In this document: piece after piece, positions 24,984-39,180 of the stretch
Numbering within the stretch: the stretch's first letter is position 1
How the letters are laid out: each line of letters starts with the position of its first letter
NCBI GenBank assembly: GCA_937922785.1
Contig: CALAJQ010000006.1
Location: 122,156 to 186,155, forward strand
DNA: 64,000 nt
Direction: 5' to 3'
Source: an uncultured Acidimicrobiales bacterium
GTDB taxonomy: Bacteria > Actinomycetota > Acidimicrobiia > Acidimicrobiales > SZUA-35
Made by a program: the position numbers and the translations under genes
Notes under the pieces: generated by a model
What the model was told of the DNA's origin: nothing
The model's database searches: none
Seen by the model: only the letters and a program-made list of their open reading frames with translations

Positions 24984-26063
24984 ATGGGCCGATTTGGAAG
25001 TATGCGTTTTCGCGTCCTCGCAACAGTGGCGGTGGCCTTTGGGTTAGCAATCGCTTCGTCCATGGTCTCGATTTCCACCGTCCAAGCTCAGCCCGATGGG
25101 TCTGAGCCAGCACCCGGAGTCCACACTGGGGCGACCCCGACCGAGCTGCAAGTGGCCCGGTTCTACCTGGCAGTATTAGATCGCCAGCCCGACCCAGAGG
25201 GCATGACGTATTGGCATCGGCTGTTAAGCACCGGGGCGGACCTGACCACCATCGCCGATGCATTTGCCGCCAGCGACGAGTTCGAGCAGCGGTTCGGAGT
25301 GCCAGTCGGTCCTGACGGTGACGTTCGCTTTGTGCATCAGGTTTACTCCAACGTTCTTGACCGCCTGCCCGATGCTGACGGCGAGCAATACTGGCTGGGC
25401 CTTCTGGCCGATGGTGTGCCTAGAGCTCAGATGGTTCTTTGGTTTTCTGAGTCGGTCGAGTTCATGAATCGCACTGGGTTGGCGCCGGCGGACCTGCCTG
25501 AGTTCTCTGGCGTAGTCTCGACAGTTAGCGCGGATGATCTCGGCGTGTCGTGGCGAGAGGGTTGCCCTATCGGTCCCGATCAACTTCGCTTGCTGACCGT
25601 GTCGTTTGTTGATTTCGAGAGCAAGGCTCAGACAGGCGAACTTGTTGTTCACGCCGAAGACGCCGAAGCCCTAGTCGGTGTGTTCGAGCGTCTCTACGAA
25701 AGCCGTTACCCGATTCAGTCAATGCGTACGATTGATGAGTTTGAGGGTTCTGACGATGCCAGCATGGAAGCTAACAACACGAGCGCCTTCAATTGTCGAA
25801 GTGCTGTCGGCTCAGGATCGTGGTCACGTCATGCATATGGTCGTGCGATCGACTTCAACCCTTTGGTAAACCCCTACGTCAAGGGTGCTTTGGTCTTGCC
25901 GCCGATTGGTCAGCCGTTCACCGATCGAGACACGATTCACAACCCAGCCCTGATCCGTGATGGTGATGTGGTGGTGAAGTCGTTTGATGACATCGGTTGG
26001 TTCTGGGGTGGGCGCTGGAAGACAGTTCTCGACTACCAGCACTTCAGCAACAACAACCGATAA
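24984..26063 (+). CDS. Secreted protein with a DUF4214 domain and a C-terminal M15-family (VanY-like) zinc D,D-carboxypeptidase domain
   Basis: Signal peptide MRFRVLATVAVAFGLAIASS. The DUF4214-like block is FYLAVLDRQPDPEGMTYW. The M15 zinc-ligand region is SRHAYGRAIDFNP. Confidence 0.65.
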   Translation: MGRFGSMRFRVLATVAVAFGLAIASSMVSISTVQAQPDGSEPAPGVHTGATPTELQVARFYLAVLDRQPDPEGMTYWHRLLSTGADLTTIADAFAASDEFEQRFGVPVGPDGDVRFVHQVYSNVLDRLPDADGEQYWLGLLADGVPRAQMVLWFSESVEFMNRTGLAPADLPEFSGVVSTVSADDLGVSWREGCPIGPDQLRLLTVSFVDFESKAQTGELVVHAEDAEALVGVFERLYESRYPIQSMRTIDEFEGSDDASMEANNTSAFNCRSAVGSGSWSRHAYGRAIDFNPLVNPYVKGALVLPPIGQPFTDRDTIHNPALIRDGDVVVKSFDDIGWFWGGRWKTVLDYQHFSNNNR

Positions 26064-26069
26064 AATCCC

Positions 26070-26115
26070 GGTTCTGTCGGCGTCAGGAGCCGGTGCCGGC
26101 TGGGTACGCCGACAG
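26070..26115. repeat. Palindromic hairpin element, family A copy 1 (46 bp). It sits between the convergent 3' ends of the M15 peptidase gene and the giant ATPase gene
   Basis: GGTTCTGTCGGCGTCAGGAGCCGGtgCCGGCTGGGTACGCCGACAG. It has a 10-bp perfect outer stem and an inner GCCGG/CCGGC palindrome. Confidence 0.85.
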
Positions 26116-26136: not shown

Positions 26137-29100
26137 TTAGGCGTCGCGGTGCTTGGGTGGGGGAGGCTGCTGGTTGGCTGCTTCGCGTTGACTGCGCGAT
26201 TCCGCAGCGGTTGATGCAAGCAAATCGATCGCCCGGGCTGCGATTGGCTCCTGCACCGACAAGGCCTCGGCGACCTGTTCGATAGCAGCAACTACTCGGG
26301 TGGCCGGGTCGGTTTCGTCTCCGCCGAGGCGTTGCTTACGCCTGAAGGTGGTGAGGATGTCGTTCCAGCGTTGAGTTTGCTCGGTATCAAGCGTGCCGCG
26401 CAGCTCACCGAGTTTCAGCAGGTTGGACTCTGCGTCGGCCGTAAGCGCTTGTGATTCGGCCACGTAGTGATCGGTGACGACCTCGGCCACCTCGGATTCA
26501 GTCATAGCTGGCACGAGCTTGGAGGCCATGCGAGCCATGTTGCGGTAGGAACCTTGCAACAAGAACGGAGGCTCCACTCGATAGTCGTCGTCGGTTGCAG
26601 CTGACGCGATGTACTGACGGTTCACCGACAGCACGGCCTCTTGAACTTGTTTGAGATGGGCCAGAGTTTGAACAATCTCGTTTGTTTCCGCTGTTGAGTA
26701 TGAGCTAGACAACGCCGACTCGGCTAAGGGCTCGCCCGCTGCAGCTTTGAGGAACGCTGCAAACTCTTCCGGAGCGGCACCAGCCAGTGGTGTCAACGCA
26801 GGGTTAGCGGTGAGTGCGTTCTCCAAGTAGCTGCTGGCGAACACGTCTTCGTCACCGGTTGAGACATCACCCAAGTTGTAGGTGTCGGCTCGGTTGGCCA
26901 ACATGTCGGGCACTCGGAACCGCTCACCTGACTCTGTGTAAGGGTTGCCCGCCATGACAACAGCAAACCGCTTGCCGCGAAGGTCGAACGTCCTGGACTG
27001 TCCGTTCCAAACACCTTCGATCCGCCGTTGGCCATCACATAGCGAAATGAAGCGCTGAAGGAATTCAGGGTTGGTGTGCTGGATGTCGTCGAGGTACAGG
27101 ATGACGTTGGTGCCAACAGCAAACGCGAGGTTGATCCGTTCGATCTCCCGAGCTGCTGTGGCCGATGGGGCTTGGGCTGGATCAAGAGATGTCGCGTCGT
27201 GACCTAGGCCAGGTCCAGAGACTTTCACTAAGGCCATGCCAAGACGGTCGGCCAAATATTCGACCAAGGTTGTCTTGCCGTAGCCCGGAGGCGACAGCAG
27301 CATAAGCAATCCAGAGCGAGCTCCGGCGGTGTCGTTGACGGTGCCGATCTGTCGGGCCAAGTTGTCACCGATTAGTGGCAGGTAAACCTTGTCGATTAGC
27401 TGATTGCGAACAAAACCTTCGGGGACCCGAGGCTCAAGATCGTCAATACGCAGGCGGTTCCGAAGGTCTGCCAGGGCGCCTCGACGAGCAGCCCCGAACT
27501 GGCGATGTTTGTCGACCACCTCGTCGAGATGCTGGGCTACTTGTGCGAAGAGGTCATCGATGCGTCCGCTAAGAACACCGGAAGTCATCGTTGGGTGCTG
27601 GCCAGCAAGACCAGTCACTTCGAACTCAAGCTGGGCAGTCAGCAGCCGGCGAGGTAGGTCTGGCAACAACAGGGCTGCTACGACTTCTTCGACCAAGTGA
27701 AGCTCGGTTTTCGCTACTGACCTGCGTACATAGTCGCTCAGAAGTACCCGAGCGCCGTCGGGGTCCTCGGCCAACCGCTGAAGCGCCTTTGACACTGCTG
27801 AGTCCTTGGCCAGCTGGCGACTAAGTCGTTGTGCGTCAGTCTGCTCAGCGAAACCCAAGCCGGCGGGCTGGGTCAGTTCAGAGACGAGATAGCGAGCCTG
27901 AGCGTGGGTGACACCAAGGTCGCTCGCCAGTTCGGTAGCCATCGCTGAGGCGGTCAGTGGCGATACATCAAGCCCTCGGGCGGCAGCGCCCCGGCCCACC
28001 CAGCGTGCTTTCAGACCCGAGTCAGGATGTAGTGCCCAGCTGATTTGGGCGGCCGCCCTGACTGGCCCGGCAACCAATAGCGTGTCTGCCGATAGTGCGA
28101 GCTGACCGATCACGGCCGCGATGGAAGCTGCGTCTACGTCGTGGACGCCGCGGTCATAGCCCTCATCCAAGCGCCGGTCAGCTTCGATGCGGACTTGCTC
28201 AAGCATTCGAGCATCGTCCTCCAGCAGCTGCCGAAGGGCGTCGGGGTCATCAAGGTGGCTCAGAATAATGTCGGCCGCAAGAAAGGTTGACCGGTACAAG
28301 TCTGGGGTTTCTGATGCCAACGGTTGGGACCAAAGGTCGCGGTGGCTGTCGAGTTCCGGTGAGTCGATTGGAAGGCGAAGATCGGTGCCGGTAAGGACCG
28401 CCTCTAGGTGTTCCTCGCCAGGAACAATGGTTAGTTCGCGGGTTCTGGAGTCGACGCTGAATCGATGGCGGCCAAGTTTGATGGCGTCGCCCTCGTAAAG
28501 ATCCTGGCGGTCGCGAAGCGCTCGCGCCGCTTCGTCGCGCATCGAGCCAAGCTGTGCCTGGACCTCGTCGGCCCGTACTGGCTCGCCAAGAGTTCTGAGG
28601 TCTTCAACGAGAGTTCGAACTCGAGCAACCATTGCGTCAGCGGCAAAGAAGCCGTTGATCTCATCAATCGATTCCAAGCCCGAGGCACGGTCGCTGATGC
28701 GGCCCAGGGTTCGGTTCGAAGCCGACACGAGGCGTTCAGCCTTCTGTTGACGAGCATCGACCAGTTGTTGGCGCTTGCCCGCAAGAGCCTCTGTTACCTG
28801 ATCTCGCCGTTTTGTGATTTCATCAAGCTGGGATTCAGTGCGAGGTCCAGCCGTCTCAATCTGCTCAAGTTGCAACATGAGCCGAGCCATTGAATCGTCA
28901 CATTGCTCGGGCGTTGACGCACGACCGACCGCGGTGGCGATTGATTGGCCGAACAGGCCAAGCTCGGTGGCAAAGGCTGCTCCGGTCTCGGATTGAACAA
29001 GATCGTTTAGCTTGTTCTCAACGCCCACCCTGGTGCGGTTCAGCTCGGCTAGGACGCCGCTTACTTGTTCAAGAACTGCAGTGCGAACTCGGGGGTCGTC

Positions 29101-31029
29101 CACGACTAGGTCGCCAACGGTTCCGGCGACTACGTCCATTGACTCCGCTACTGCGTCAACTTCAGCCAACAACTCGGTGGCGCCAACTGAAGAATCACAA
29201 GCAGTCGTCCGCGCCGACAAGGCCTCCAGCTGATCGTGGTAGGGGGCGAACGCTCCGTCGCCAGCTAGGTGAGCCGCAGCCTTTTGACCCAGGCCCTTGA
29301 ACGCTTCGGTGGCTTGGGTGATGAGTACATCGACCCGGTCGGTGTCGATCTCTCGACGCCCTCTAACGGTGTGGAGATGGCCGATTTGAGTTCGAAGGTT
29401 TGCCAATCCGTCGATGAAAGCTCGGGTGTCCTTCGCAGGAGAGATGCGTTGTTCATTGAGCTCCCGTGTGAGATCAGCTTCGGCCTCAGCCAGCGCTTCG
29501 GTGGCCGAACTGCGAACTTCAAGCATCCGCTCGAACTCGTCAATGACCTGTTCGGCCACGATGCGAATGTCCTTGGCTGGTTCAGCCAGGTTGCCCAGCT
29601 TCGGGTCACCAATCCAATGGTGAGCGTCTATGAGGCGACCCGTCGAAGAGAGCAAGTCACCATAGATCTCGACGCTTGGTTCGACACCCTCAACCAGTCG
29701 GGTCAAAGACAGGGCGTCGGCAATACCAGCCACGAGACCAGCGTTTCCAACCCGATCAAGGTCGGTAGTGGTGTGAGGCTGTGCTTCGTACCATTCGTCG
29801 GAGCAAAACGGCGTTTTCCAGATTTGGGTGGGATGTATGCGTGTTGGGCTGGGCTCTTCGCGGAACGCAATCATTGTTCCGTCGGAGAAGATTGTGTGGC
29901 CATGACAAACGATCGGCGCTGCCACTTCCTGGCGAACGACGTTGTATGGCAACAAGGTGCTCAGACCGGTCTCTCGCTCGTGAAAGACGTAGAGCACATC
30001 TTCGCCATTGGGCGAGCGAACAACTTCCAAAAGCTCGGTTCTGTCGGTGTCGAGATCAAACGTCCGCAGCTCGCCCGTCTTCAGATAGATGCCCTCGGGG
30101 AAGATAAGACCTTGCGCATCGGGAAGCTGGCGAAAGGCTTGACCCAAAGAGTCAAGCCGGAGGGCGCTGTGAGTGAGCTTGTTTACTAAGTAGTACCGCT
30201 TGTGAGTCTCGCCATAGGGCAGGACTTCCAGCAACACAATGTCGCCGCCATCGGCCCACGAGACCTGGCAGTCCTGCAGTGACTGGTCGGCGTGTTGAAG
30301 GCGATCGCTTAACAGCAGGGTGCCTTCGGCACTGTCGTCAAATGCGATATCGAAGGTGCCGCCAAGCGGATTAACTACAATGCGGTCACCGACAGCGATA
30401 TGGGTAGCGCCAACGTGGTCTGCCCGGGTCAGCAGAGTCCACTCAAGATCTTGGTGCGACGGAAACTTGTAGTCCCGCTCGCCCCGAGCATCTAGATAAG
30501 TGAGTGTGTTGTCGGCGTTGATCTGCCACCGAAAGACCCGTACGTCAGCGGGGCCTCCGCCGATCCGAAAGACGGCAAGGAGACGCTGGCCCGAACGGTA
30601 AAGCTGCTGAAGCTGTGTCTCTTTGAAGTAGGTGTGTAGTTCGTCAAAGTCGCGATGGAACTGGTCGTCATCTAAAGCAGTACCGCTTAGGCCTTCTGGG
30701 TTCGGGCTTAGCACTACGGGAGCGCCACCTTCGCCGTCGGTCAACTCGAAGTGGTGAACCGCAAACACATCGGTAGAGCGGATCTCACTTTTGACACCAG
30801 CCGCCACGTTGTAAGCCAGAATCATCTGGTCACCGACCGACGCCAAGTCGCGGGGGACAGCGTTGGCTTCGGTCCGTACTCGCTCGGTGCCGAGCATCTC
30901 CAGCTGGCTGGACCCGAAGGTCTCTAGCCGGCGCTGGTTCAGCTCGTTTGCTCGGTTCTTAAGCTCCTTGGCAGCGTCCTCTAGCCTGCCGCGAAGCAGG
31001 TCATAGGTGCCTTGGGCTACGTCGGTCAC
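26137..31029 (-). CDS. Giant 1630-aa protein with a MoxR/AAA_5-type AAA+ ATPase domain near the C-terminus. The N-terminal domain of about 460 aa and the long central alpha-helical region are of unknown function
   Basis: Walker A LLSPPGYGKTT (about residue 1247), Walker B VILYLDDIQ, and a sensor-1-like VVMAGNP. The start codon overlaps the flotillin stop codon by 4 bp, which suggests translational coupling. Confidence 0.85.
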   Translation of the reverse strand: MTDVAQGTYDLLRGRLEDAAKELKNRANELNQRRLETFGSSQLEMLGTERVRTEANAVPRDLASVGDQMILAYNVAAGVKSEIRSTDVFAVHHFELTDGEGGAPVVLSPNPEGLSGTALDDDQFHRDFDELHTYFKETQLQQLYRSGQRLLAVFRIGGGPADVRVFRWQINADNTLTYLDARGERDYKFPSHQDLEWTLLTRADHVGATHIAVGDRIVVNPLGGTFDIAFDDSAEGTLLLSDRLQHADQSLQDCQVSWADGGDIVLLEVLPYGETHKRYYLVNKLTHSALRLDSLGQAFRQLPDAQGLIFPEGIYLKTGELRTFDLDTDRTELLEVVRSPNGEDVLYVFHERETGLSTLLPYNVVRQEVAAPIVCHGHTIFSDGTMIAFREEPSPTRIHPTQIWKTPFCSDEWYEAQPHTTTDLDRVGNAGLVAGIADALSLTRLVEGVEPSVEIYGDLLSSTGRLIDAHHWIGDPKLGNLAEPAKDIRIVAEQVIDEFERMLEVRSSATEALAEAEADLTRELNEQRISPAKDTRAFIDGLANLRTQIGHLHTVRGRREIDTDRVDVLITQATEAFKGLGQKAAAHLAGDGAFAPYHDQLEALSARTTACDSSVGATELLAEVDAVAESMDVVAGTVGDLVVDDPRVRTAVLEQVSGVLAELNRTRVGVENKLNDLVQSETGAAFATELGLFGQSIATAVGRASTPEQCDDSMARLMLQLEQIETAGPRTESQLDEITKRRDQVTEALAGKRQQLVDARQQKAERLVSASNRTLGRISDRASGLESIDEINGFFAADAMVARVRTLVEDLRTLGEPVRADEVQAQLGSMRDEAARALRDRQDLYEGDAIKLGRHRFSVDSRTRELTIVPGEEHLEAVLTGTDLRLPIDSPELDSHRDLWSQPLASETPDLYRSTFLAADIILSHLDDPDALRQLLEDDARMLEQVRIEADRRLDEGYDRGVHDVDAASIAAVIGQLALSADTLLVAGPVRAAAQISWALHPDSGLKARWVGRGAAARGLDVSPLTASAMATELASDLGVTHAQARYLVSELTQPAGLGFAEQTDAQRLSRQLAKDSAVSKALQRLAEDPDGARVLLSDYVRRSVAKTELHLVEEVVAALLLPDLPRRLLTAQLEFEVTGLAGQHPTMTSGVLSGRIDDLFAQVAQHLDEVVDKHRQFGAARRGALADLRNRLRIDDLEPRVPEGFVRNQLIDKVYLPLIGDNLARQIGTVNDTAGARSGLLMLLSPPGYGKTTLVEYLADRLGMALVKVSGPGLGHDATSLDPAQAPSATAAREIERINLAFAVGTNVILYLDDIQHTNPEFLQRFISLCDGQRRIEGVWNGQSRTFDLRGKRFAVVMAGNPYTESGERFRVPDMLANRADTYNLGDVSTGDEDVFASSYLENALTANPALTPLAGAAPEEFAAFLKAAAGEPLAESALSSSYSTAETNEIVQTLAHLKQVQEAVLSVNRQYIASAATDDDYRVEPPFLLQGSYRNMARMASKLVPAMTESEVAEVVTDHYVAESQALTADAESNLLKLGELRGTLDTEQTQRWNDILTTFRRKQRLGGDETDPATRVVAAIEQVAEALSVQEPIAARAIDLLASTAAESRSQREAANQQPPPPKHRDA

Positions 31030-32975
31030 TTGCCGATCTGGCGAAGCAGTTCAGCAACGCTCAGGTCCCTGATGCCTTCAGCGCCTAGGCCGCTGATGGC
31101 GTTGGCAATAGCTGCGACGAGGTCTTCGTCACCGTTCTGATACGGCTCAAGAACGTTGCTAATCGTGTCAGACTTCTGAGTGAGCCCGTCGATTGACTTG
31201 CCGGTGCTGATGGCGCCAACGAGCTTGTCAACGAACATGTCAGAGCCACCGACGATGTCAATGTTGGCAGCCTCTAGGCCGGCCTTCATTGCGTCAGCTT
31301 GAGCTGTGGCAACACCAACGGTTGCGTCAACTTCGGCAAGGCGAACCTTGGTGTCAGCCTCGAGGCGACGAACAAATTCCTCGTGCTCCTGGCCAACGCC
31401 TTCAAGCTCACGCATGGCTGCAGCCTTGTCGGTAAGACCCTTGGCCTCACCCTTCAGCTTGGCTTCAACGATCTGTGCCTCAGCAAGGCCAGCGTCGCGA
31501 ACCTTCGCAGCTTCAGCTTCGCCTAATTCTCTAACTGCAGATGCTCGGGCGACGTCAACGTTGACGTCGGCTAGGCCGAGTTTCTCGTTGGCGCCAGCCT
31601 TGGCGTGCATCACTTCGGCTTCAGCCAAACCGCTTGCAGCTTCGTGAGCCTGAATACCTTCAGCCATACGAATCTTGGCCTGGGCTTCAAGGTTCGAAGC
31701 TTCCAGCTCTGCTTGGGCCATGCGCACTTGCTCGCTGGCTTTGTGCTCGGCAGCTGCGGCTGCGGCTTCAGCAGCTTTGATGTCTTTAACGAGGTCCGCC
31801 TGAGCATCACCTTCGGCTGTGATAACAACAGCGTCCTTTTGACGAGTTGCCTCCTCGACAACACGAAGGGTTGCGATTTCTTCTTCCTGAATGGCCACGG
31901 TCTTTTCAACCGCAACACGATCACGGCGAAGGTCGGCAATGCCGCTCATCTCTTGCTCAAGCGCCTTCTCAGCAGCCAAGGTCTCAACCTTGCGGCTCAT
32001 GTCTTCAAGCTCTGCAGCCTTGCGAACACGCTCTGCCTCAACCGCAAGCACACGCTCACGGTTCTTGGCAGCAACTTCGATCTCGCGCTGGAGGTTTTCG
32101 TTCTCGATGCCAAGCTTCTGGTCAACCTCAAGGGCTGCCATCTCGGCTCGTAGTCGTTCTTCGGCCTGGATGGTGTCGATAGTGGCCTGCTCACGTGAGC
32201 GGACCGTTTCAACCTCACGACGCTGACGAGCTTCCGCGTCTGCTTGCTGACGCTCTAGCTCGAGCACTGCTTCACGAGTCTCAACGTCCTTAGCGGTGAT
32301 CTGCTTGCGCTCATCGTTGGCGGCGTTATTGGTTGCAACGTGCTCGATGGCGGTCAGCTCGGTGATCTTACGGATGCCCTGGGCATCCAAGATGTTGTTG
32401 CTGTCAAGCGATGACAACGGGGTCTGCTCTAGGTAGTCAATGGCCACGTCTTCAAGCGAGTAGCCGTTGAGGTCGGTTCCGATGACTTCGATGATTCGGT
32501 CACGGAAGTTGGCCCGCTCGGTGTACAGCGAGATGAAGTCCATCTGCTTACCGACGGTCTTTAGCGCCTCAGAGAACTTCGCAGTGAACAGCTCTTCAAG
32601 AGTTTCGATGTTGCTAGCCCGGTCACAACCAATGGCCTGAGCAACCTTGATGACGTCCTCTTCAGCCTTGTTCACACGAACAAAGAAGTTCACCTTGATG
32701 TCAGCCCGGATGTTGTCCTGGCAGATAAGGCCTTCAGTCTGGCGGCGGTCGATCTCGATTGTCTTAACCGAGATGTCCATCACCTCAGCCTTGTGAATCA
32801 CCGGCACAACAACGCGGCCGGTAAAGGTGACATCAACACTCTTCATCGTGCTGACGACCAAGGCTTTACCTTGAGGGACCTTGCGATAGAAGGACGAGAT
32901 AGCAAGTCCGACTACAAGGATGATTAGCAATGCGACTACAACAACAATCGCAACGATGGTTAGGGCGGTGCCCAC
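31026..32975 (-). CDS. Flotillin-family protein (SPFH/band-7 domain with a long Ala/Glu-rich coiled-coil region)
   Basis: N-terminal TM (IVAIVVVVALLIILVVGL), an SPFH domain, then EA-rich repeats. 649 aa. Confidence 0.9.
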   Translation of the reverse strand: MGTALTIVAIVVVVALLIILVVGLAISSFYRKVPQGKALVVSTMKSVDVTFTGRVVVPVIHKAEVMDISVKTIEIDRRQTEGLICQDNIRADIKVNFFVRVNKAEEDVIKVAQAIGCDRASNIETLEELFTAKFSEALKTVGKQMDFISLYTERANFRDRIIEVIGTDLNGYSLEDVAIDYLEQTPLSSLDSNNILDAQGIRKITELTAIEHVATNNAANDERKQITAKDVETREAVLELERQQADAEARQRREVETVRSREQATIDTIQAEERLRAEMAALEVDQKLGIENENLQREIEVAAKNRERVLAVEAERVRKAAELEDMSRKVETLAAEKALEQEMSGIADLRRDRVAVEKTVAIQEEEIATLRVVEEATRQKDAVVITAEGDAQADLVKDIKAAEAAAAAAEHKASEQVRMAQAELEASNLEAQAKIRMAEGIQAHEAASGLAEAEVMHAKAGANEKLGLADVNVDVARASAVRELGEAEAAKVRDAGLAEAQIVEAKLKGEAKGLTDKAAAMRELEGVGQEHEEFVRRLEADTKVRLAEVDATVGVATAQADAMKAGLEAANIDIVGGSDMFVDKLVGAISTGKSIDGLTQKSDTISNVLEPYQNGDEDLVAAIANAISGLGAEGIRDLSVAELLRQIGK

Positions 32976-33036
32976 ACGAGCCTCTTTCTTTTGGTTTGGT
33001 TATTCAACGGTTCAGATCCTGTTGGACCTGAGCGAA

Positions 33037-33729
33037 TTACGTGAGTGCGTCGATATCTGGGGAGATGGTGAACAAACCATCTTCATCAACGGCTACTAGA
33101 AGGGCTTTTGAGCCCTTGGATAATGAGTTTTCGGTATGGCAGCGCACCTGGACTAGGTGGGCGCCGCCTTCGGCGTCAACGAGCTCGGCCTGGCCGAAAC
33201 CGGCATCAACGCGGCCTGTGCTGATCGTGCAAAGACGGCCGACTAGGTCTTGGCGCCGGACCGCTCGTTTGACCTCAAAGACTGGTCGGAGCATGTGGCC
33301 GACCCGTCCCGTGGCCAGGATGCCTACAAAGAAAGACCCAGCGATAATGGCCAGCCCGACAAGAGCGTTTGTGTTTCCATCGTCTCCGCTAAGGATTAGC
33401 GATAAGACGACGCTGCTTAACCAGCCAAAGAGGCTGATGAGGGTGATTCCAAGACTTAAAGGAAGCAGATGGAGGTTGAGCGCAACCAGCGCGGCGCCCA
33501 AGCCACCCGCTCCGGCACCGCCAGCATCGATGTCCAGATCAACATCTACATCCAGATCGAGATCTAAATCAAGCTCGGGCGCCTCGCCTAACCCGAGGAG
33601 GGAGGTCATGGCCCAGTATCCGAGCGAGATCAGAAGGAGCGTGGTGAAGATGACTGTGGGAAACCCCAGTGATATCTCCAGAACTCTAAACATGAACTCC
33701 CTTGCCCTCTGTTGATGTCGTGTCAACAA
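33037..33729 (-). CDS. NfeD-like membrane protein (partner of SPFH proteins) with a C-terminal OB-fold beta-barrel
   Basis: About 4 TM segments, an acidic DLDLDLDVDVDLDID low-complexity stretch, and a C-terminal region GRLCTISTGRVDAGFGQAELVDAEGGAHLVQVRC...LLVAVDEDGLFTISP typical of short NfeD. The start may instead be the internal Met13. Confidence 0.65.
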   Translation of the reverse strand: MLTRHQQRAREFMFRVLEISLGFPTVIFTTLLLISLGYWAMTSLLGLGEAPELDLDLDLDVDVDLDIDAGGAGAGGLGAALVALNLHLLPLSLGITLISLFGWLSSVVLSLILSGDDGNTNALVGLAIIAGSFFVGILATGRVGHMLRPVFEVKRAVRRQDLVGRLCTISTGRVDAGFGQAELVDAEGGAHLVQVRCHTENSLSKGSKALLVAVDEDGLFTISPDIDALT

Positions 33730-33766
33730 TCAACGTCGGCCAATCAAGAACGGTTCCTGAGATATT

Positions 33767-33818
33767 TCGCCGTTTCCCGGCCACGGAGGCCGTCGCCGTT
33801 TCCCGGCCACGGAGGCCG
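33767..33818. repeat. Perfect 26-bp tandem direct duplication (2 copies) in the nfeD-flotillin promoter region
   Basis: TCGCCGTTTCCCGGCCACGGAGGCCG x2, at 33767-33792 and 33793-33818. Confidence 0.9.
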
Positions 33819-33857
33819 CCCAACTCCCGGATCACTGGTCGGGAGGGCGGTTTCATT

Positions 33858-33905
33858 GGTTCTGTCGGCGTCAGGAGCCGGAACCGGCTGGGTACGCCGA
33901 CAGAA
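33858..33905. repeat. Palindromic hairpin element, family A copy 2 (48 bp). It lies downstream of the MBL-hydrolase gene and about 130 bp upstream of nfeD
   Basis: GGTTCTGTCGGCGTCAGGAGCCGGaaCCGGCTGGGTACGCCGACAGAACC, with a 14-bp perfect outer stem. Nearly identical to the copy at 26070-26115. Confidence 0.85.
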
Positions 33906-33917
33906 CCGAGTGGGTTG

Positions 33918-34538
33918 CTATTGCTTGGAGCGCCATTCGGCGAGGCTGGGGGACTCAGCTCCGATGGAGGTCGAATCGCCGTGGCCGGTATGGACGGTGG
34001 TGTGACCCGGTAGCGAGAACAGCTTCTTTTCGATGGTGTCGAGGATCAGGTCATAGCTGGAAAACGACCGGCCGGTGGCGCCAGGACCGCCGTTAAACAG
34101 GGTGTCTCCGCTGAATAGGACGCCTTCGGACGGCACGTGCAGGCAACAGCCGCCGGGGGAGTGACCAGGAGTATGCAAAATGTTGATCTCGCTGCCACCA
34201 ACGGTGATCAGATCGCCGTCGGCCAGGGTGTTGTCAACCCGACGGTCGCCGTAAACGACTTCCCACAACATTGCGTCGTCCGGATGCAGATAGATCGGCG
34301 CGCCAGTCTCGTCCGACAGAGCCGCCGCAGCATTGATGTGGTCATTGTGGCCATGAGTGCAGATGATGCCGGCTAGCTTTCGACCGTCTAGACCTTCAAG
34401 AATTGGCCGGTGGTCATGGGCCGCGTCGATAACGATTGCTTCATTGTCGTCGCCGATGATCCAGACGTTGTTGTCTACCTCGTAGTCGCCCCCATCAAGG
34501 GAAAAGATGCCCGAAGTGATTACTCGATCGAGCCGCAT
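33918..34538 (-). CDS. MBL-fold metallo-hydrolase, S-formylmycothiol hydrolase (Fmh)-like
   Basis: HxHxDH motif (ICTHGHNDHI). Its start overlaps the stop of the upstream class-III ADH (TGATG). I prefer the 206-aa form that starts MRLDRV over the longer track ORF. Confidence 0.65.
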   Translation of the reverse strand: MRLDRVITSGIFSLDGGDYEVDNNVWIIGDDNEAIVIDAAHDHRPILEGLDGRKLAGIICTHGHNDHINAAAALSDETGAPIYLHPDDAMLWEVVYGDRRVDNTLADGDLITVGGSEINILHTPGHSPGGCCLHVPSEGVLFSGDTLFNGGPGATGRSFSSYDLILDTIEKKLFSLPGHTTVHTGHGDSTSIGAESPSLAEWRSKQ

Positions 34539-35623
34539 CAAAGCACCACTACCGAACGAAGAACTTCGCCGGCTTCCATCTTGTGGAAGGCCTCTTCGAC
34601 CGAATCGAGGTCGATCGTTTCGCTGACGAAGCCTTCTAGGTTCAGGCGGCCTTGCAGATAAAGGTCGATCAGCATCGGGAAGTCCCGGCTTGGCAGGCAG
34701 TCGCCGTACCAAGAGCTCTTAAGCGCCCCGCCTCGGCCAAACAGCTCGATGAATGGCAGCTCAATCTTGTGCGCCGGGTTGGGCACCCCGACTAGAACAA
34801 CGGTTCCAGCTAGGTCACGGGCGTAGAACGCCTGCTCGTAAGCGGCAGGAAGCCCGATTGCCTCGATAGCGACGTCAACGCCGTTGCCGCCAGTTAGCTC
34901 ACGAATTTTCTCCACAGCATCTTCCTTTGTGGAGTTGATGGTGTGGGTGGCTCCGAAGTTCTTTGCCCATTCAAGCTTCTTGTCGTCGATATCGACGGCA
35001 ATGATTGTGTGAGCGCCAGCAAGCCGGGCGCCTTCTAGAGCAGCATCACCAACGCCGCCGCAGCCGAACACCGCAACGCTGTCGCCACGGCCAACTTCGC
35101 CGGTGTTCATTGCGGCACCAAGGCCGGCCATCACACCGCATCCCAAAAGTCCGGCAACTTCGGGCTTGGCTTCAGGGTTGACCTTGGTGCACTGGCCTGA
35201 CGCAACCAATGTCTTTTCACAAAAGGCGCCAATTCCCAGTGCCGGAGAAAGCTCGGTACCGTCCAGCAAGGTCATCTTCTGGGTGGCGTTGTGGGTAGCG
35301 AAACAGTACTGCGGCTTGCCTCTTTGGCAGCTACGACACTGTCCACAAACGGCTCGCCAGTTGAGAATCACGTAGTCGCCAACGGCAACGTCGGTTACGT
35401 CGTCGCCAATACTCTCAACTATGCCCGCTGCTTCGTGGCCCAGAAGAAACGGGAACTCATCGTTAATGCCACCTTCGCGATAGTGAAGGTCGGTATGGCA
35501 AACGCCGCAAGCTTGAATCGCAACGACCGCTTCGCCCGGGCCCGGGTCGGGGATAACGATCGTCTCAACACTTACTGGTTCACCCTTGGCTTTGGCGATG
35601 ACGCCTCGAACTTCTTGTGGCAT
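34538..35623 (-). CDS. Zn-dependent class III alcohol dehydrogenase, an S-(hydroxymethyl)mycothiol/glutathione-type formaldehyde dehydrogenase (MscR/AdhC-like)
   Basis: [12 protein letters not shown], the structural-zinc Cys cluster [15 protein letters not shown], and GLGGVG-like NAD binding. The start is placed at MPQEVRG, with an AAGGGGA Shine-Dalgarno sequence 6 nt upstream. Confidence 0.8.
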
Positions 35624-35920
35624 GAATTTCCCCTTGAATAGTGCGGTTTGCCTCTTGACTGGCTGCCTTGAGACTAGGCAGAAATGGGAAGGTTCACAAT
35701 TGGGACCCGTAGGCCGATAGGCCCACATGCGTTGTGAAACCCGCTTGCCGAAAAAGCTCTATCTGGATTTGGCCGCGCTCGAGGAGCCAGAAGGCTTCTG
35801 GGCCCACCTTTATCGAGTGTTGGTTCAACAACCAAGGCCCATTCGCGTGTACTCGCCGACACCAGATCCGAACAACGGAGCCTGGTAGTTAGGTAAGCCT
35901 GGTCGTTAGGTAAGCCTCGC

Positions 35921-37021
35921 CTAGAGGGCGGTGAACTCGATGCGTCGGTTCTGGGTTCTGCCTTCTGGTGTGGCGTTGTCGCCGACAGGCTGATCAGGCC
36001 CATAGCCAACCGCAGTCAGGTCTGACTCAACTCCGCCTGCAACCAGTGCGTCAAGCACAGCTTGGGCTCGCCGTTGGCTGAGATCCTGGTTAAAGGCCGG
36101 GTCGCCGGTGGAATCGGTGTGGCCACCAATTTCGACTGAGGCGTCTGGGAACAACTTGAGGATCTCAACTGCACGATCGATGGTCGGCTGCGATGCAGCG
36201 TCGATGTCAGCGGTGCCCGTCTGGAACAAAATCGGCTCGAGCTGGACAAGTTCATTCAGCGATGCGTCAACCTCGGCGTCGAGTTTGACTGTTCCGGTGT
36301 AAGAGCCCTCAAGCCCGCCGCCAGCTGATGCGGCAGCGTCTAAGGCACCCGTGAGGGTTCCGTACTTGGTGGCGTCAGTCAAAGAGCCGGTACTAACAAC
36401 TGAGTAGTTAGTTGCATCGTCGAGCACGGTCAGTTCGTCGGTTATCTGATCGGCAGAGTAGGACTCGGCTGCGGCGGCACGAATGCTTGCTGCCATTTCC
36501 TCGCTCGGGACGGTTCCCGTGAGCACGATCGCATCGTCAGAAACGTCGATGGTTGCTTCGGCTGTCACGTCCTCGGCCTCAGGAATGAACATTTCGTCGA
36601 TGACTTCGGAAACATTTGGCTGCTGTTGGATGAATCCGATGATTCCAGCGCGGGTTGCTTCGTCAGCGACCGGGCCTCGGACTGTCACCGTGTTGCCCGA
36701 AGCTGAGAGCTGGACTGGTGGGAACCCGTCGGCTGCTAGGTCAGATGAGATTTGGAAGCCATCGGCATCGAGCGACGCTGCCTCTTCGTTGTTGTCATCG
36801 TCGCTGTGATCGTCGTCCTCGACGTCGGCGCTAGCCACCGTTGCTGGCTCTGGGTTGTAGCCGATGATTCCGGCCGAAACGAAAAAGGCCACCAAAATGG
36901 CCGCCAAGATTCCGGCGCCGGCCATGCCGCCGAATGCGACGTCTCCGTCATCGGCGAGGGCAACGCCGCCGCCAGTTACGGCCCCGCGTCGCTTTGGTTC
37001 GTCTTTAGTGCTGTCAGCCAT
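35921..37021 (-). CDS. OmpA/MotB-domain membrane protein
   Basis: N-terminal TM, an acidic region, and the C-terminal OmpA-like peptidoglycan-binding motif (GHTDSTGDPAFNQDLSQRRAQAV...NRRIEF). Confidence 0.75.
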   Translation of the reverse strand: MADSTKDEPKRRGAVTGGGVALADDGDVAFGGMAGAGILAAILVAFFVSAGIIGYNPEPATVASADVEDDDHSDDDNNEEAASLDADGFQISSDLAADGFPPVQLSASGNTVTVRGPVADEATRAGIIGFIQQQPNVSEVIDEMFIPEAEDVTAEATIDVSDDAIVLTGTVPSEEMAASIRAAAAESYSADQITDELTVLDDATNYSVVSTGSLTDATKYGTLTGALDAAASAGGGLEGSYTGTVKLDAEVDASLNELVQLEPILFQTGTADIDAASQPTIDRAVEILKLFPDASVEIGGHTDSTGDPAFNQDLSQRRAQAVLDALVAGGVESDLTAVGYGPDQPVGDNATPEGRTQNRRIEFTAL

Positions 37022-37578: not shown

Positions 37579-39180
37579 ATGAAGCCACACGCCGTCGCTA
37601 CCTGGTCTCAACTAGAAGATCGGACCCCGACATATGCCCTGGTCAGCAACGTTGACCTAGTCATTGTCCGCAACGGAGACTCTCATTCGGTGCTCTATGG
37701 GCGTTGTTTGCATCGTGGTGCTCTTATGAGTGATGGAACAGTTCAAGGCGAGGACTTGATCTGTGGTGTCCATGGCTGGGACTACAGAATCGATTCTGGG
37801 GTGTCTGCTTACAACAACTCTGAGGCCCTACCTGTCTTCAAGTCTTGGGTGTCTGACGACGAACTCATGGTTGATGCGGACGAAATTGCCGAATGGGAGC
37901 ACGACAACCCCCAGCCCTATGACCGTGACGCATACCTCGGCCTCTACGCCGACACTCATGGAACTCCAGCGGAGCCCTGGGTAGGCGACATCCAGTCCAT
38001 TGCAAAGAACGGATTGGGAGGAGATCACGGCAAGACCACCGCGATGGGGATCCCGCCGGTTGATCTGCCGCTTTGGGACTCACTTCAATTTGTCACCGCC
38101 CAACTCGCAACTAGGCCGCTGATCGATGAAGCCGTCTCAACTTCGGTTCAGATTGGCCCCAAGGCCGCAAAGCCCTTGATGTTGGACATTCCAATATTTG
38201 TGTCCGACATGAGTTTCGGGGCGCTAAGCGAGGAGGCCAAAGTTGCCCTGGCCAGAGGTGCTCAGCGAGCGGGAACAGGCATCTGTTCGGGTGAGGGCGG
38301 AATGTTAGAAGAGGAGCACGTCGAGAACTCCCGGTACTTCTATGAGCTTGCCAGTGGTCGGTTTGGGTGGTCTCTAGACAAGGTCAAAGACGTTCAGGCC
38401 TTCCACTTCAAGTTTGGTCAGGGTGCTAAGACCGGCACTGGCGGCCACCTTCCAGGCAAGAAGGTGCAAGGCAAGATCGCCGAAGTTCGAGATCTTGAAC
38501 CAGGCACCGACGCTATTTCACCGGCCACGTTCCCAGACTTGGTCACCATTGCCGACTACCAGGAAGTAGCGGCCCAAGTTCGCGACGCCTCAGGAGGTAT
38601 CCCCATTGGGGCCAAGCTGTCGGCACAACACATCGAAGCGGACCTTGCCGCAGCCATCGAGATCGGTGTGGATTATGTGATTTTGGATGGTCGCGGCGGC
38701 GGAACTGGCGCAGCCCCGGTGATCTTCAAGAACAACATTTCAGTGCCGACCATTCCTGCCTTGGCCCGAGCTCGCCGCTACCTCGACTCGGTTGGCGCCG
38801 ACCATGTTTCGTTAGTCATAACGGGCGGACTTCGCACGGCTGCTGACTTCTCGAAGGCTCTGGCCCTCGGTGCTGACGCCATTGCGGTGTCGAACTCTGC
38901 GATGCAGGCCATTGGCTGTTTGGGTATGCGGGCTTGTCACACCGACAACTGCCCAGTGGGAATTGCGACCCAGCGCAAGGACCTTCGGTCACGACTAATT
39001 GTGGAGGAATCCGCGCAGCAACTTACACAGTTCTTCCAGTCCTCGGTGCACTTGATGCAGACACTGGCCCGGGCACTAGGCCATCACGATCTGTCGGACT
39101 TCAACGTGAATGACCTAACAACCTATGACCGTGAAATGGCCCACCTTTCGGGTGTCGCCTACGGCGGAGTTAGCCTGTAG
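37579..39180 (+). CDS. Rieske [2Fe-2S] domain fused to a glutamate-synthase-type FMN-binding (GltS central domain-like) domain
   Basis: The Rieske ligands are CLHRG...CGVHGW. The C-terminal region of about 400 aa resembles the glutamate synthase FMN domain (DGRGGGTGAAP, GLRTAADFSKALALGADAI). Confidence 0.7.
   Translation: MKPHAVATWSQLEDRTPTYALVSNVDLVIVRNGDSHSVLYGRCLHRGALMSDGTVQGEDLICGVHGWDYRIDSGVSAYNNSEALPVFKSWVSDDELMVDADEIAEWEHDNPQPYDRDAYLGLYADTHGTPAEPWVGDIQSIAKNGLGGDHGKTTAMGIPPVDLPLWDSLQFVTAQLATRPLIDEAVSTSVQIGPKAAKPLMLDIPIFVSDMSFGALSEEAKVALARGAQRAGTGICSGEGGMLEEEHVENSRYFYELASGRFGWSLDKVKDVQAFHFKFGQGAKTGTGGHLPGKKVQGKIAEVRDLEPGTDAISPATFPDLVTIADYQEVAAQVRDASGGIPIGAKLSAQHIEADLAAAIEIGVDYVILDGRGGGTGAAPVIFKNNISVPTIPALARARRYLDSVGADHVSLVITGGLRTAADFSKALALGADAIAVSNSAMQAIGCLGMRACHTDNCPVGIATQRKDLRSRLIVEESAQQLTQFFQSSVHLMQTLARALGHHDLSDFNVNDLTTYDREMAHLSGVAYGGVSL

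Follow-up and report, generated by a model that had tools for sequence, protein, structure and literature searches.

Layout of the locus

Within the 64-kb stretch of DNA analysed here (the window), three open reading frames are found on the minus strand where the first-pass annotation had placed them: 33037-33729 (230 aa), 31026-32975 (649 aa), and 26137-31029 (1630 aa). In this order, they encode a small NfeD-like membrane protein, a flotillin, and a giant AAA+ ATPase. The flotillin and ATPase genes overlap by 4 nt (31026-31029, minus strand); initially taken for ATGA, this overlap reads GTGA (aaGTGAcc) directly from the sequence, with the GTG start codon of the ATPase lying on the TGA stop of the flotillin. 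The overlap had also been held to indicate obligate co-expression; however, a stop/start overlap of this kind is possible in just 16 of 77 homologous loci, and spacers of 50-250 nt separate the two genes in many of them. The overlap is thus a feature of the lineage, and translational coupling of flotillin and ATPase is not conserved across homologous loci.

The gene on the 5′ side of the unit encodes an MBL-fold protein. Between its stop and gene 1 lies a 42-nt palindromic hairpin (33862-33903, minus strand; RNA fold -37 kcal/mol, z -7.5), which is likely to be a terminator or insulator that sets the 5′ boundary of the three genes. A second copy of the same hairpin (26074-26115, minus strand; -31 kcal/mol, z -5.5) occurs 22 nt past the ATPase stop, is followed by AUUUU, and is the likely terminator of the unit. 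The region 33694-33855 (minus strand) contains a perfect 26-bp tandem duplication at 33767-33818, as well as a palindrome, GTTGAT-N11-ATCAAC, at 33711-33733 that includes TTGACA. This region is tentatively assigned as the promoter/operator—tentatively because a consensus promoter scan gave nothing above chance.

The YqiJ-like protein and its flotillin

The 230-aa frame of gene 1 exists as the longest open reading frame, but its start is most likely the ATG at 33693, giving a protein of 218 aa (33037-33693, minus strand). A GGGAG Shine-Dalgarno sequence sits 5 nt upstream of this ATG, and the 218-aa start is also used by homologues and by an independent gene call on an identical contig. The protein possesses three to four hydrophobic segments and a putative C-terminal OB-like domain. 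Its match to Pfam YqiJ_OB (E 1.2e-4, 22.5 bits) is under the gathering cut-off of 25.4, and that to the YuaF structure (PDB 2k14) is weak (E 0.019 as a single sequence, 0.17 as a profile); the family profile aligns with E. coli YqiJ at 92% probability (E 6e-7, hhalign). By homology, gene 1 encodes a polytopic membrane protein of the YqiJ/YuaF type, belonging to the short, non-protease NfeD-like proteins.

Gene 2 (31026-32975, minus strand) starts with GTG, preceded by an AAGAGG Shine-Dalgarno sequence. The 649-aa product comprises a transmembrane helix (residues ~1-34), an SPFH region (~35-215), a helical stretch rich in Ala and Glu (~216-560), and, at the C terminus, a flotillin-type tail. 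In BLASTP, it matches E. coli K-12 YqiK at 2e-36 with 29% identity over 455 aa, in an alignment that runs through the SPFH region, and the profile comparison gives 99.9% (hhalign); a further, weak PDB match of the profile is to QmcA (entry 8z5g, 26 chains). Pfam Band_7 (PF01145) finds no match in the window flotillin even at E<=1, and the identity of the protein is therefore taken from its homology to YqiK. Among 36 close relatives, Band_7 is found in four, which are 46-73% identical to the window flotillin (best 5.3e-11), and Flot, likewise without a match in the window flotillin, in two; NCBI and JGI label such relatives 'flotillin family protein' or 'YqiK'. The comparison with YqiK accordingly identifies gene 2 as encoding a single-pass YqiK-type flotillin.

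The early reading of genes 1 and 2 as an NfeD-like protein paired with a flotillin thus stands, with YqiJ and YqiK as the closer designations. In E. coli, YqiJ and YqiK are homologues of the two proteins and are encoded in the same order, the small membrane protein before the flotillin, and B. subtilis YuaF-FloT is a comparable NfeD-like/flotillin pair, with gene 1 weakly homologous to YuaF. Unlike the window, E. coli K-12 does not encode a giant ATPase after yqiK, and such flotillin pairs can therefore exist without one. Flotillins coupled to the ATPase form a subfamily of their own: they share 44-74% mutual identity across phyla but 29% with YqiK, are around 100 aa longer than the latter, and for the most part escape Pfam Band_7.

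The giant ATPase

Gene 3 (26137-31029, minus strand) encodes a soluble multidomain protein of 1630 aa in which no transmembrane segment is convincing. The protein is acidic throughout, its net charge being about -87. It matches Pfam DUF3686 over residues 22-471 (E 2e-149, 498.4 bits against a cut-off of 25; profile positions 1-448 of 448), DUF7902 (8.8e-19, 67.9 bits; cut-off 26), AAA_5 (7e-7, 29.7 bits; cut-off 22), and AAA (1.3e-6, 29.3 bits; cut-off 21.2). These are the features of the DUF3686 or 'DNA repair ATPase' family (PF12458, PF25472, and AAA in a single polypeptide of ~1600 aa). The search for homologues returned 1526, the full-length ones being 38-74% identical, and among 1.84 billion proteins, DUF3686 occurs in 645 representatives, almost only at the N terminus of proteins of ~1600-1900 aa. 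The protein belongs to no well-characterised family with a flotillin-independent function.

The N-terminal ~460 aa, which the first-pass annotation could not assign, correspond to DUF3686. Residues 1-410 (29800-31029, minus strand) begin with a long helix (2-38) and continue as the DUF3686 core, a predicted divergent β-propeller (~44-405); AlphaFold2 models of parts of the ATPase reach pLDDT values of 91 and 89, and the N terminus finds structural matches among propellers. Residues 411-1200 (27430-29799, minus strand) had been described as helical, which holds with the exception of two small β elements in the AlphaFold2 models, at ~849-888 and 1127-1156. Helical bundles occupy 411-845 and include DUF7902 at 593-674; a helical domain spans 913-1120, and residues 1127-1193 combine β strands with a long connector helix.

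The AAA+ module, assigned by Foldseek and motif conservation, makes up residues 1201-1630 (26140-27429, minus strand), with a core at ~1210-1390, a lid, and a C-terminal helical extension. The ATPase motifs recognised earlier are all found: Walker A, SPPGYGKTT, at residues 1246-1254 (27268-27294, minus strand); Walker B, ILYLDD, at 1310-1315 (27085-27102, minus strand); and the sensor-1 strand with a candidate arginine finger (FAVVMAGNP...ANRAD) within FAVVMAGNPYTESGERFRVPDMLANRAD, residues 1355-1382 (26884-26967, minus strand). Walker B ends in Asp-Asp instead of Asp-Glu, which is invariant in the family, and hydrolysis kinetics could therefore be unusual. This module is the most conserved part of the protein (59-75% identity). 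N1362 is kept in 78 and R1380 in all of 80 homologues, whilst GYGKT, LYLDDIQH, AGNPYTE, PDMLANRAD, and QGSYRN are kept in 72-80 of the 80, drawn from several phyla. Such conservation indicates that the ATPase motifs (Walker A and B, sensor 1, Arg1380, and QGSYRN) are under selection. A further highly conserved loop, GPxLGHxxTSLDP, lies between β2 and α2, where AAA+ pore loops occur.

The best Foldseek matches of the module in the PDB are NorQ (9qh4 and 9qhd), CbbQ (6l1q, target TM 0.65; 5c3c), and RuvB, at E about 1e-4; the match to the MoxR-class proteins is distant, with 14-16% identity. The earlier assignment to the MoxR/AAA_5 type is nevertheless upheld, NorQ and CbbQ being MoxR-class proteins and the nearest, if distant, relatives. 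With the MoxR-class ATPases NorQ, CbbQ, and RavA the module shares its best structural matches, the AAA_5 match, and a predicted β-hairpin ahead of the sensor-1 strand (residues 1336-1349 in the model). The pattern NP-x-E-x-G-(x)n-P-x-x-x-x-x-R also resembles what we take to be the MoxR/AAA_5 signature. MoxR proteins are ~300-500 aa long and work with a VWA/MIDAS partner; here, by comparison, the module forms the last quarter of a protein of 1630 aa. Neither a conserved VWA gene near the ATPase in 80 loci nor a VWA match in the Pfam search was found. The overall architecture is thus predicted from the models as a β-propeller at the N terminus and a MoxR-class AAA+ module at the C terminus, with ~750 aa of helical arms between them.

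Conservation of the unit and its accessory genes

In a comparison of 80 homologous ATPase loci, 77 had upstream sequence, and in all 77 a relative of the flotillin (44-74% identical) lies directly upstream of the ATPase and in the same orientation; in 74 of them, the flotillin in turn follows a YqiJ-like gene. These loci come from Actinomycetota, Gammaproteobacteria, myxobacteria, Acidobacteriota, and a Clostridia metagenome-assembled genome, and plasmid records extend the unit to Deinococcus and Bacteroidota. Among 72,556 plasmid records, the 13 that carry the ATPase are exactly the 13 that carry a full-length flotillin relative, with the genes adjacent in each; 28 others contain partial SPFH-domain matches only and no ATPase. 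Adjacency of flotillin and ATPase, which the first-pass annotation had proposed checking in related genomes, is thus kept across phyla. Besides the YqiJ-like and flotillin genes, no other generally conserved neighbour was found in the 80 loci. On this comparative evidence, the three genes form a conserved functional unit, their adjacency exceeding chance.

Further genes accompany the unit in some lineages. DUF2170 (YjfI) and PspA are encoded upstream in 11 gammaproteobacterial loci, PLDc_2 is encoded downstream in seven loci, and a rhomboid gene directly follows the ATPase in five gammaproteobacterial loci and is also present in the pQBR103 cluster, where a complete yjf-like PspA operon is joined to the cassette. 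On a Hymenobacter plasmid, the gene order is Tir-chaperone, PspA, DUF1449, flotillin, and ATPase, with a LexA-family regulator encoded divergently. In the 64-kb window, tblastn found no PspA or DUF2170 homologue, nor was a PLD or rhomboid homologue found; the link to PspA is therefore indirect for this locus.

The operon architecture, implied to be new at first pass, has already been described. In a purely computational study, available as a preprint since 2020 (Ravi, Anantharaman et al.), Ravi et al. 2024 (mSystems; PMC11237479) report an operon of YqiJ/YuaF, Band-7/flotillin, and a β-propeller-coiled-coil-AAA+ ATPase together with CesT/Tir-PspA and, optionally, a PLD gene, as well as widespread 'abbreviated' forms without PspA. 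The extended forms listed above were recovered here independently of that paper. The window has the same three core genes in the same order with the same domain architectures—a 3TM YqiJ/YuaF-type protein, a TM-flotillin, and a propeller-helical-AAA+ protein. It lacks the CesT/Tir (YjfI)-PspA dyad of the full form within 64 kb and so matches the abbreviated form. Ravi et al. give no accession for the Acidimicrobiia lineage of the window (PMC11237479); that their ATPase is the DUF3686 family is inferred from architecture and context (the Hymenobacter locus) rather than from a shared accession. The discovery of the neighbourhood is thus already published, to which the present locus adds an Acidimicrobiia example, and what remains is experimental characterisation rather than discovery.

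A membrane-centred role, as first suggested, is the best reading of the unit, given that in other lineages PspA/YjfI, rhomboid, and PLD genes have become joined to the cassette; Ravi et al. independently draw the same inference from gene context (PMC11237479). The SPFH protein YdjI is reported to be needed in B. subtilis for recruitment of PspA to the membrane (PMC8581546).

Proposed function and alternatives

We lean towards a flotillin-centred membrane-maintenance module in which the giant ATPase remodels the scaffold or its clients at the expense of ATP. Solved SPFH assemblies are large, and the flotillin would, like them, build a large ring or cage of many subunits on the cytoplasmic side of the membrane, together with the YqiJ-like protein. 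The conserved candidate arginine finger points to an active site shared between subunits and so suggests that the AAA+ modules oligomerise, and the propeller and helical arms may dock on the flotillin/YqiJ assembly. ATP hydrolysis would then assemble, disassemble, or reshape the flotillin scaffold, or load and unload clients—in particular, perhaps, the PspA/ESCRT-III-type polymers whose genes share the operon in other lineages—during envelope stress. The substrate could be flotillin, PspA, or membrane-protein clients, and the abbreviated unit of the window may act alone or with a PspA encoded elsewhere.

A more specific proposal is that the ATPase is a dedicated assembly and disassembly factor for flotillin cages, a 'Vps4/NSF for SPFH scaffolds'. 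The β-propeller would recognise flotillin or the OB domain of the YqiJ-like protein, and the MoxR-like ring, by opening, closing, or recycling the cage, would control the access of PspA, lipases, or proteases to a sequestered membrane patch. Taken with all of these steps, the proposal is possible but doubtful. The comparison with Vps4/ESCRT-III stems from the extended operons, which co-encode PspA (of the ESCRT-III superfamily) and an AAA+ ATPase and so invite a role in disassembly or remodelling; however, the ATPase has no MIT domain and is not of the classical clade, PspA is absent here, and the invariant partner is flotillin.

Membrane-protein quality control is a rather unlikely alternative, in which a flotillin cage would corral clients that the ATPase extracts, unfolds, or passes to proteases, on the model of HflK/C with FtsH and of mitochondrial SLP2 with PARL and YME1L. 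The enclosure of AAA+ proteases by SPFH cages is a well-established theme, for which Ma et al. 2022 are cited, and HflK/C-FtsH, or prohibitin or SLP2 with AAA proteases, offer an analogous concept of an SPFH scaffold tied to an AAA+ machine. The place of the GPxLGHxxTSLDP loop and the rhomboid intramembrane protease encoded after the ATPase would fit; however, the rhomboid is confined to a minority of loci (five gammaproteobacterial ones and the pQBR103 cluster), and no protease is found among the three core genes. Moreover, FtsH is a membrane-anchored protease of the classical AAA clade, whereas the giant ATPase is soluble, without membrane anchor or protease domain, and of another AAA+ lineage. 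Its nearest structural relatives, NorQ and CbbQ, act on particular partners as remodelling ATPases rather than as processive unfoldases. Distinctly improbable is an anti-phage or conflict system, in which flotillin/YqiJ would sense or execute membrane damage with the propeller-AAA+ protein as sensor or switch. Defence systems often contain large NTPases with repeat-domain sensors, and PspA is known as the 'phage shock' protein. Some megaplasmids carry the cassette, which in Hymenobacter lies beside a divergent LexA-family regulator, and the genes flanking the unit vary even between close relatives. Set against this, searches of PADLOC-DB 2.0 (PADLOC) gave weak partial matches for the ATPase (LmuB, 7e-5, in a coiled-coil stretch; IetA, 0.006-0.02, in the P-loop only) and none for the YqiJ-like protein or the flotillin; no effector of the nuclease, protease, pore-former, or NADase kind can be recognised in the core; the cassette is in just 13 of the 72,556 plasmid records, mostly megaplasmids or mislabelled chromosomes; and the genes neighbouring the unit in the window are metabolic or housekeeping.

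Very little speaks for the database name being correct, that is, for a DNA repair ATPase that stands beside a flotillin gene by accident. Pfam uses the name in describing DUF3686, and NCBI uses it for the product. RuvB features among the structural matches of the AAA+ module and in weak P-loop-only matches, but the latter are confined to ~35 residues surrounding Walker A (E 0.005 to 0.3). The ATPase shows no nucleic-acid-binding domain, is acidic throughout, and is invariably coupled to membrane proteins, the other accessory genes being membrane-related and not repair genes; within the collection of papers searched, neither DUF3686 nor PF12458 is mentioned. The name thus appears to be without support. 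That an ordinary flotillin operon and an unrelated ATPase gene came to lie together by chance was also considered and is refuted, to near certainty, by the 77 of 77 loci and the reciprocal 13 of 13 plasmid records.

Significance

What bacterial flotillins do is a long-standing question, and we know of no enzymatic partner in the standard models, B. subtilis FloT/FloA and E. coli YqiK, nor of any SPFH scaffold with a remodelling ATPase of its own. The subfamily described here is tied one-to-one to a large ATPase with active-looking motifs and, in some lineages, also to PspA, a rhomboid protease, and phospholipase D. Should the ATPase remodel the assembly of flotillin or of PspA, bacteria would have their first energy-dependent regulator of an SPFH scaffold, SPFH and ESCRT-III-like membrane-repair systems would be linked, and the widely propagated 'DNA repair ATPase' annotation would be corrected. 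The system offers a motor that can be mutated, a domain predicted to mediate interactions, and several tractable hosts, namely, P. fluorescens SBW25/pQBR103, Streptomyces, Myxococcus/Corallococcus, Proteus, and Xenorhabdus.

The operon and its boundaries

Three minus-strand ORFs make up the unit, as the first-pass annotation had proposed: gene 1, encoding a YqiJ/NfeD-like membrane protein (33037–33729); gene 2, a 649-aa flotillin (31026–32975); and gene 3, a giant ATPase of 1630 aa (26137–31029). The likeliest start codon of gene 1 is the ATG at 33693, giving a protein of 218 aa. A GGGAG lies just 5′ of this codon, which is also the start chosen for the identical public contig by an independent gene call and used in a 74%-identical relative. 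Gene 2 starts with GTG, preceded by an AAGAGG Shine-Dalgarno sequence. The junction of genes 2 and 3, reported earlier as an ATGA overlap, reads aaGTGAcc (GTGA), and thus the start codon of the giant is GTG.

The unit is bracketed by two copies of a 42-nt palindromic hairpin element, CTGTCGGCGTACCCAGCCGG-NN-CCGGCTCCTGACGCCGACAG, which is present exactly twice in the window against an expectation of zero and whose copies differ at two loop bases only. The upstream copy (33862–33903, minus strand; RNA −37 kcal/mol, z −7.5) lies between an MBL-fold gene and gene 1; the downstream copy (26074–26115, minus strand; RNA −31 kcal/mol, z −5.5) lies 22 nt past the giant's stop and is followed by AUUUU. 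Most simply, the hairpins are terminators insulating a three-gene transcription unit; in character they are terminator-like or REP-like, and they may also mark the limits of a cassette. They were found by reading the sequence: a consensus promoter/terminator scan of the unit's region, at chance level, did not yield them and gave no promoter in the stretch from the upstream hairpin to gene 1. The palindrome was absent from JGI metagenome contigs (two scans) and from every related locus. Upstream of gene 1 lies a perfect 26-bp tandem duplication (33767–33792 and 33793–33818) and, just 5′ of the gene, a palindrome GTTGAT-N11-ATCAAC with TTGACA inside it (33711–33733); the stretch 33711–33818 is a candidate promoter/operator of the unit.

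The YqiJ-like protein and the flotillin

The gene 1 protein has three to four hydrophobic segments, a weak C-terminal Pfam match to YqiJ_OB (22.5 bits, under the cut-off of 25.4) and a weak match to the solved domain of Bacillus subtilis YuaF (E = 0.019). Alignment of its family profile (28 members) with Escherichia coli YqiJ gave 92% probability (E = 6e-7). Judged by sequence, it is of the YqiJ/YuaF type: a short NfeD-like protein in which the protease domain is absent.

Gene 2 encodes one N-terminal transmembrane (TM) helix and an extended helical stretch rich in Ala and Glu. A Pfam search gave zero matches even at E ≤ 1, direct sequence searches of Pfam, NCBIfam, and the PDB yielded nothing useful, and the family profile reached only a marginal coiled-coil match in the PDB, to QmcA (8z5g, an entry of 26 chains). 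Its identity as a YqiK-type flotillin was settled by comparison with E. coli yqiJK: against K-12 YqiK, the protein aligns at 2e-36 (29% identity across 455 residues), and hhalign gives a probability of 99.9%. Relatives are named 'flotillin family protein' or 'YqiK' by NCBI and JGI; among 36 close relatives, Band_7 was reached by four and Flot by two. An NCBIfam match to 'TrlF family AAA-like ATPase' (E = 2.5e-4; 19.9 bits, below the cut-off of 350) was rejected as coiled-coil/compositional similarity. The subfamily as a whole (31026–32975 in the window and the 120 listed relatives P0121–P0240) mostly escapes Band_7 and Flot, the precomputed Pfam column reading '-' for the majority of the 120, so that neighbourhood surveys relying on domains will count too few copies of the operon.

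The giant ATPase

Pfam assigns DUF3686 to residues 22–471 of the giant (E = 2e-149) and DUF7902 to residues 593–674, with weak AAA_5 and AAA matches at 1242–1365; its family bears the NCBI name 'DNA repair ATPase'. AlphaFold2 was run on a 66-sequence alignment as two models, residues 1–500 and 481–1630. The first (pLDDT 91.1) comprises a long N-terminal helix, a beta-rich domain (44–405), and helices (411–499). Its top Foldseek matches in the PDB are all beta-propellers—DCAF1 WD40, pseudaminidase, YncE, Ski8, Vps18, Kelch, and PON1—at E 5e-7 to 1e-5 with low TM scores. The N-terminal domain, considered unassignable in the first-pass annotation, is thus DUF3686 by Pfam and, on the AlphaFold2 model and its Foldseek matches, a divergent beta-propeller clasped by helices.

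The second model (pLDDT 88.8) runs from approximately 365 residues of long helices through a small beta element, a second helical domain, and a connector to the AAA+ core, in which a beta-hairpin precedes the sensor-1 strand; a lid and helical tail come after the core. The best structural matches of this core are the MoxR-class proteins NorQ and CbbQ, with RuvB next (Foldseek, E ~1e-4); the module is placed in the MoxR class, yet the giant has no VWA partner. The propeller–helical–AAA+ architecture as a whole is predicted with high confidence.

The ATPase motifs quoted in the first-pass annotation were present on translation of the minus strand: SPPGYGKTT (Walker A) at 27268–27294, ILYLDD (Walker B) at 27085–27102 (residues 1310–1315), and FAVVMAGNP...PDMLANRAD at 26884–26967. 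They are under strong constraint: GYGKT, LYLDDIQH, AGNPYTE, PDMLANRAD, and QGSYRN are kept in 72–80 of 80 homologues from several phyla, and nowhere is the protein better conserved than in its AAA+ region (59–75% identity). In 78 of these homologues, the Walker B motif (LYLDD-IQH) carries Asp-Asp rather than the usual Asp-Glu, an arrangement that resembles the Walker B of DnaA/DnaC-type proteins and that may imply slow or switch-like hydrolysis. No convincing TM segment was detected in the giant, which therefore appears soluble; it is strongly acidic (net charge ~−87).

Conservation of the three-gene module

Scanning one genome per species yielded at least 591 relatives, and the best 80 of these at least 591 loci were analysed. 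By record title, they derive from Actinomycetota, Gammaproteobacteria (including Pseudomonas, Pseudoalteromonas, Xenorhabdus, and Lysobacter), myxobacteria, 'Deltaproteobacteria' MAGs, Acidobacteriota, and one Clostridia MAG; the closest relatives among the matches listed are Acidimicrobiales MAGs, which makes an Acidimicrobiia-like actinobacterium the probable source of the window. A flotillin 44–74% identical to gene 2 lies directly upstream of the giant, on the same strand, in 77/77 loci with upstream DNA, the remaining three of the 80 being contig ends. Clustering of all ORFs placed a YqiJ-like gene in 74 loci and revealed no other generally conserved neighbour. The genes flanking the unit in the window are not conserved in homologous loci, and flanks vary even among relatives 68–74% identical; linkage of the MBL-fold, Zn-ADH, OmpA/BON, M15 peptidase, and ABC transporter genes was rejected, each being linked in a few loci at most.

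The association is reciprocal. Within the plasmid collection, the giant is carried by 13 records, precisely those 13 that bear a full-length relative of gene 2, with the two genes adjacent in every one; a further 28 records have partial SPFH-domain matches only and lack the giant. The 13 records add Deinococcus and Hymenobacter (Bacteroidota) to the host range. The flotillin–giant neighbourhood singled out in the first-pass annotation is thus conserved, the three genes forming a conserved module in which flotillin and ATPase are linked one-to-one. When the first 500 residues of the giant were searched exhaustively against 1.84 billion proteins, only 645 representatives were retrieved, and the domain is essentially always N-terminal in proteins of ~1600–1900 aa. 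A giant-type gene is absent from E. coli K-12 yqiJK; given this absence and the reciprocal link, the giant marks a distinct flotillin subfamily.

The stop/start overlap had been taken to imply obligate co-expression, but such an overlap is possible in just 16 of the 77 loci: co-orientation and adjacency are universal in the compared loci, and translational coupling is not. In some loci (L044, L060, L073, L076 (Streptomyces), and L086 at 5505–6008), GC-rich repeats have expanded the flotillin–giant spacer to 260–500 nt; a 167-aa gene called in the L086 spacer is a mis-call over such repeats and not a conserved gene. Separately, a Lysobacter and a Pseudomonas locus share a conserved ORF of ~80 aa between flotillin and giant (L050, ~9560–9830; L058, ~9530–9790), whose TerB-like similarity falls short of the cut-off (23.8 against 24.4 bits).

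Extended operons

Accessory genes of extended operons are membrane-related. DUF2170 (YjfI) and PspA/IM30 genes precede the cassette in 11 gammaproteobacterial loci, and a PLDc_2 phospholipase-D-type gene lies 3′ of the giant in seven loci. In five gammaproteobacterial loci, the next gene after the giant encodes a rhomboid intramembrane protease: L052 (15322–15897, overlapping the giant), L064 (14883–15455), L056, L058, and L063. A rhomboid beside flotillin and giant recalls the mitochondrial SLP2–PARL–YME1L complex.

On pQBR103 of P. fluorescens SBW25 (L083; NC_009444.1, 1–12184), a yjf-like PspA/polyamine operon is fused to the YqiJ–flotillin–ATPase cassette in a nine-gene cluster, in the order PspA, rhomboid (421–975), DUF2491, DUF350, DUF1190, glutathionylspermidine synthase, YqiJ-like, SPFH, and 'DNA repair ATPase'. 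This well-studied environmental megaplasmid offers a ready experimental system for the cassette. On a Hymenobacter plasmid, a divergent LexA-family regulator is followed by a Tir-type chaperone, PspA, DUF1449, flotillin, and the ATPase.

The operon type is already in the literature. Ravi, Anantharaman et al. (mSystems 2024, PMC11237479; preprint 2020) describe a CesT/Tir–PspA dyad with three genes including a 3TM YqiJ/YuaF protein and, in some operons, a PLD gene. [quoted passage not shown] The Dokdonia row of their Table S3 agrees with the Hymenobacter locus in gene order and architecture, and from architecture and context, rather than accession, we infer a single family for both ATPases. PspA–Band7/Flot–NfeD neighbourhoods are also reported by Popp et al. 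2022 (PMC9239133), and an ancient SPFH–ESCRT-III link is discussed by Makarova et al. 2024 (PMC10936438); an experiment on the giant ATPase is reported in none of the three papers.

No PspA, YjfI, PLD, or rhomboid gene lies within the 64-kb window, and, as far as these sources extend, the locus is an abbreviated form of an operon type known computationally and never characterised experimentally. With minor corrections, the observation in the first-pass annotation is confirmed, and its interpretation largely stands, with the overlap and the novelty over-read, the operon type having already been described computationally in PMC11237479. The additions made here are incremental: the one-to-one reciprocal coupling of the giant to a distinct flotillin subfamily; ATPase motifs that scarcely vary, the Asp-Asp Walker B among them; confident domain models and MoxR-class placement without a VWA partner; and, relative to the sections of the 2024 paper available, which do not mention it, the rhomboid accessory gene, together with evidence against the 'DNA repair' name.

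Proposed function

The reading favoured, with moderate confidence, is that a flotillin oligomer, the YqiJ-like protein, and a docked giant act together, with ATP driving remodelling of the scaffold or its clients. The flotillin would form a large membrane-attached oligomer, as the weak match to the 26-chain QmcA entry might suggest, and the YqiJ-like protein would associate with it. The giant could then oligomerise through its AAA+ module, dock via propeller and arms, and spend ATP on scaffold remodelling or on the loading or unloading of clients such as PspA during envelope stress. The main rival, on the same theme and drawn by analogy with HflK/C-FtsH, is that the module would serve client extraction or quality control; this is possible but unlikely.

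A defence role for the operon is more doubtful still: PADLOC was negative, and the locus has neither an effector nor an island context. That the giant is a DNA-repair ATPase, as its database name says, is effectively rejected as highly improbable. Its RuvB matches are at the P-loop level only, the protein is acidic and its gene context is membrane-related, and no supporting literature was found; the papers searched make no mention of DUF3686 or PF12458, nor of flotillin in combination with 'DNA repair ATPase'. On this evidence the family name appears unfounded. Chance adjacency of flotillin and giant is also effectively rejected, being barely credible.

Neighbouring genes in the window

Two cell-envelope genes lie close to the unit. 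Convergent with it is an ORF (24984–26063, plus strand) encoding DUF4214 and a Peptidase_M15_4 D-Ala-D-Ala carboxypeptidase domain; upstream is a BON and OmpA-domain protein (35921–37021, minus strand). In other genomes, neither is a conserved neighbour of the operon. Taken at their longest, the minus-strand ORFs of the MBL-fold gene (33918–34712) and the Zn-dependent alcohol dehydrogenase gene (34538–35728) share 175 nt; the MBL-fold gene has a TTG start that is probably set too far upstream. Further upstream and unrelated to the operon, a plus-strand ORF (37579–39180) encodes a fusion protein, with a Rieske [2Fe-2S] domain at the N-terminus and an FMN domain of the glutamate-synthase type (Glu_synthase, E = 1.8e-90).
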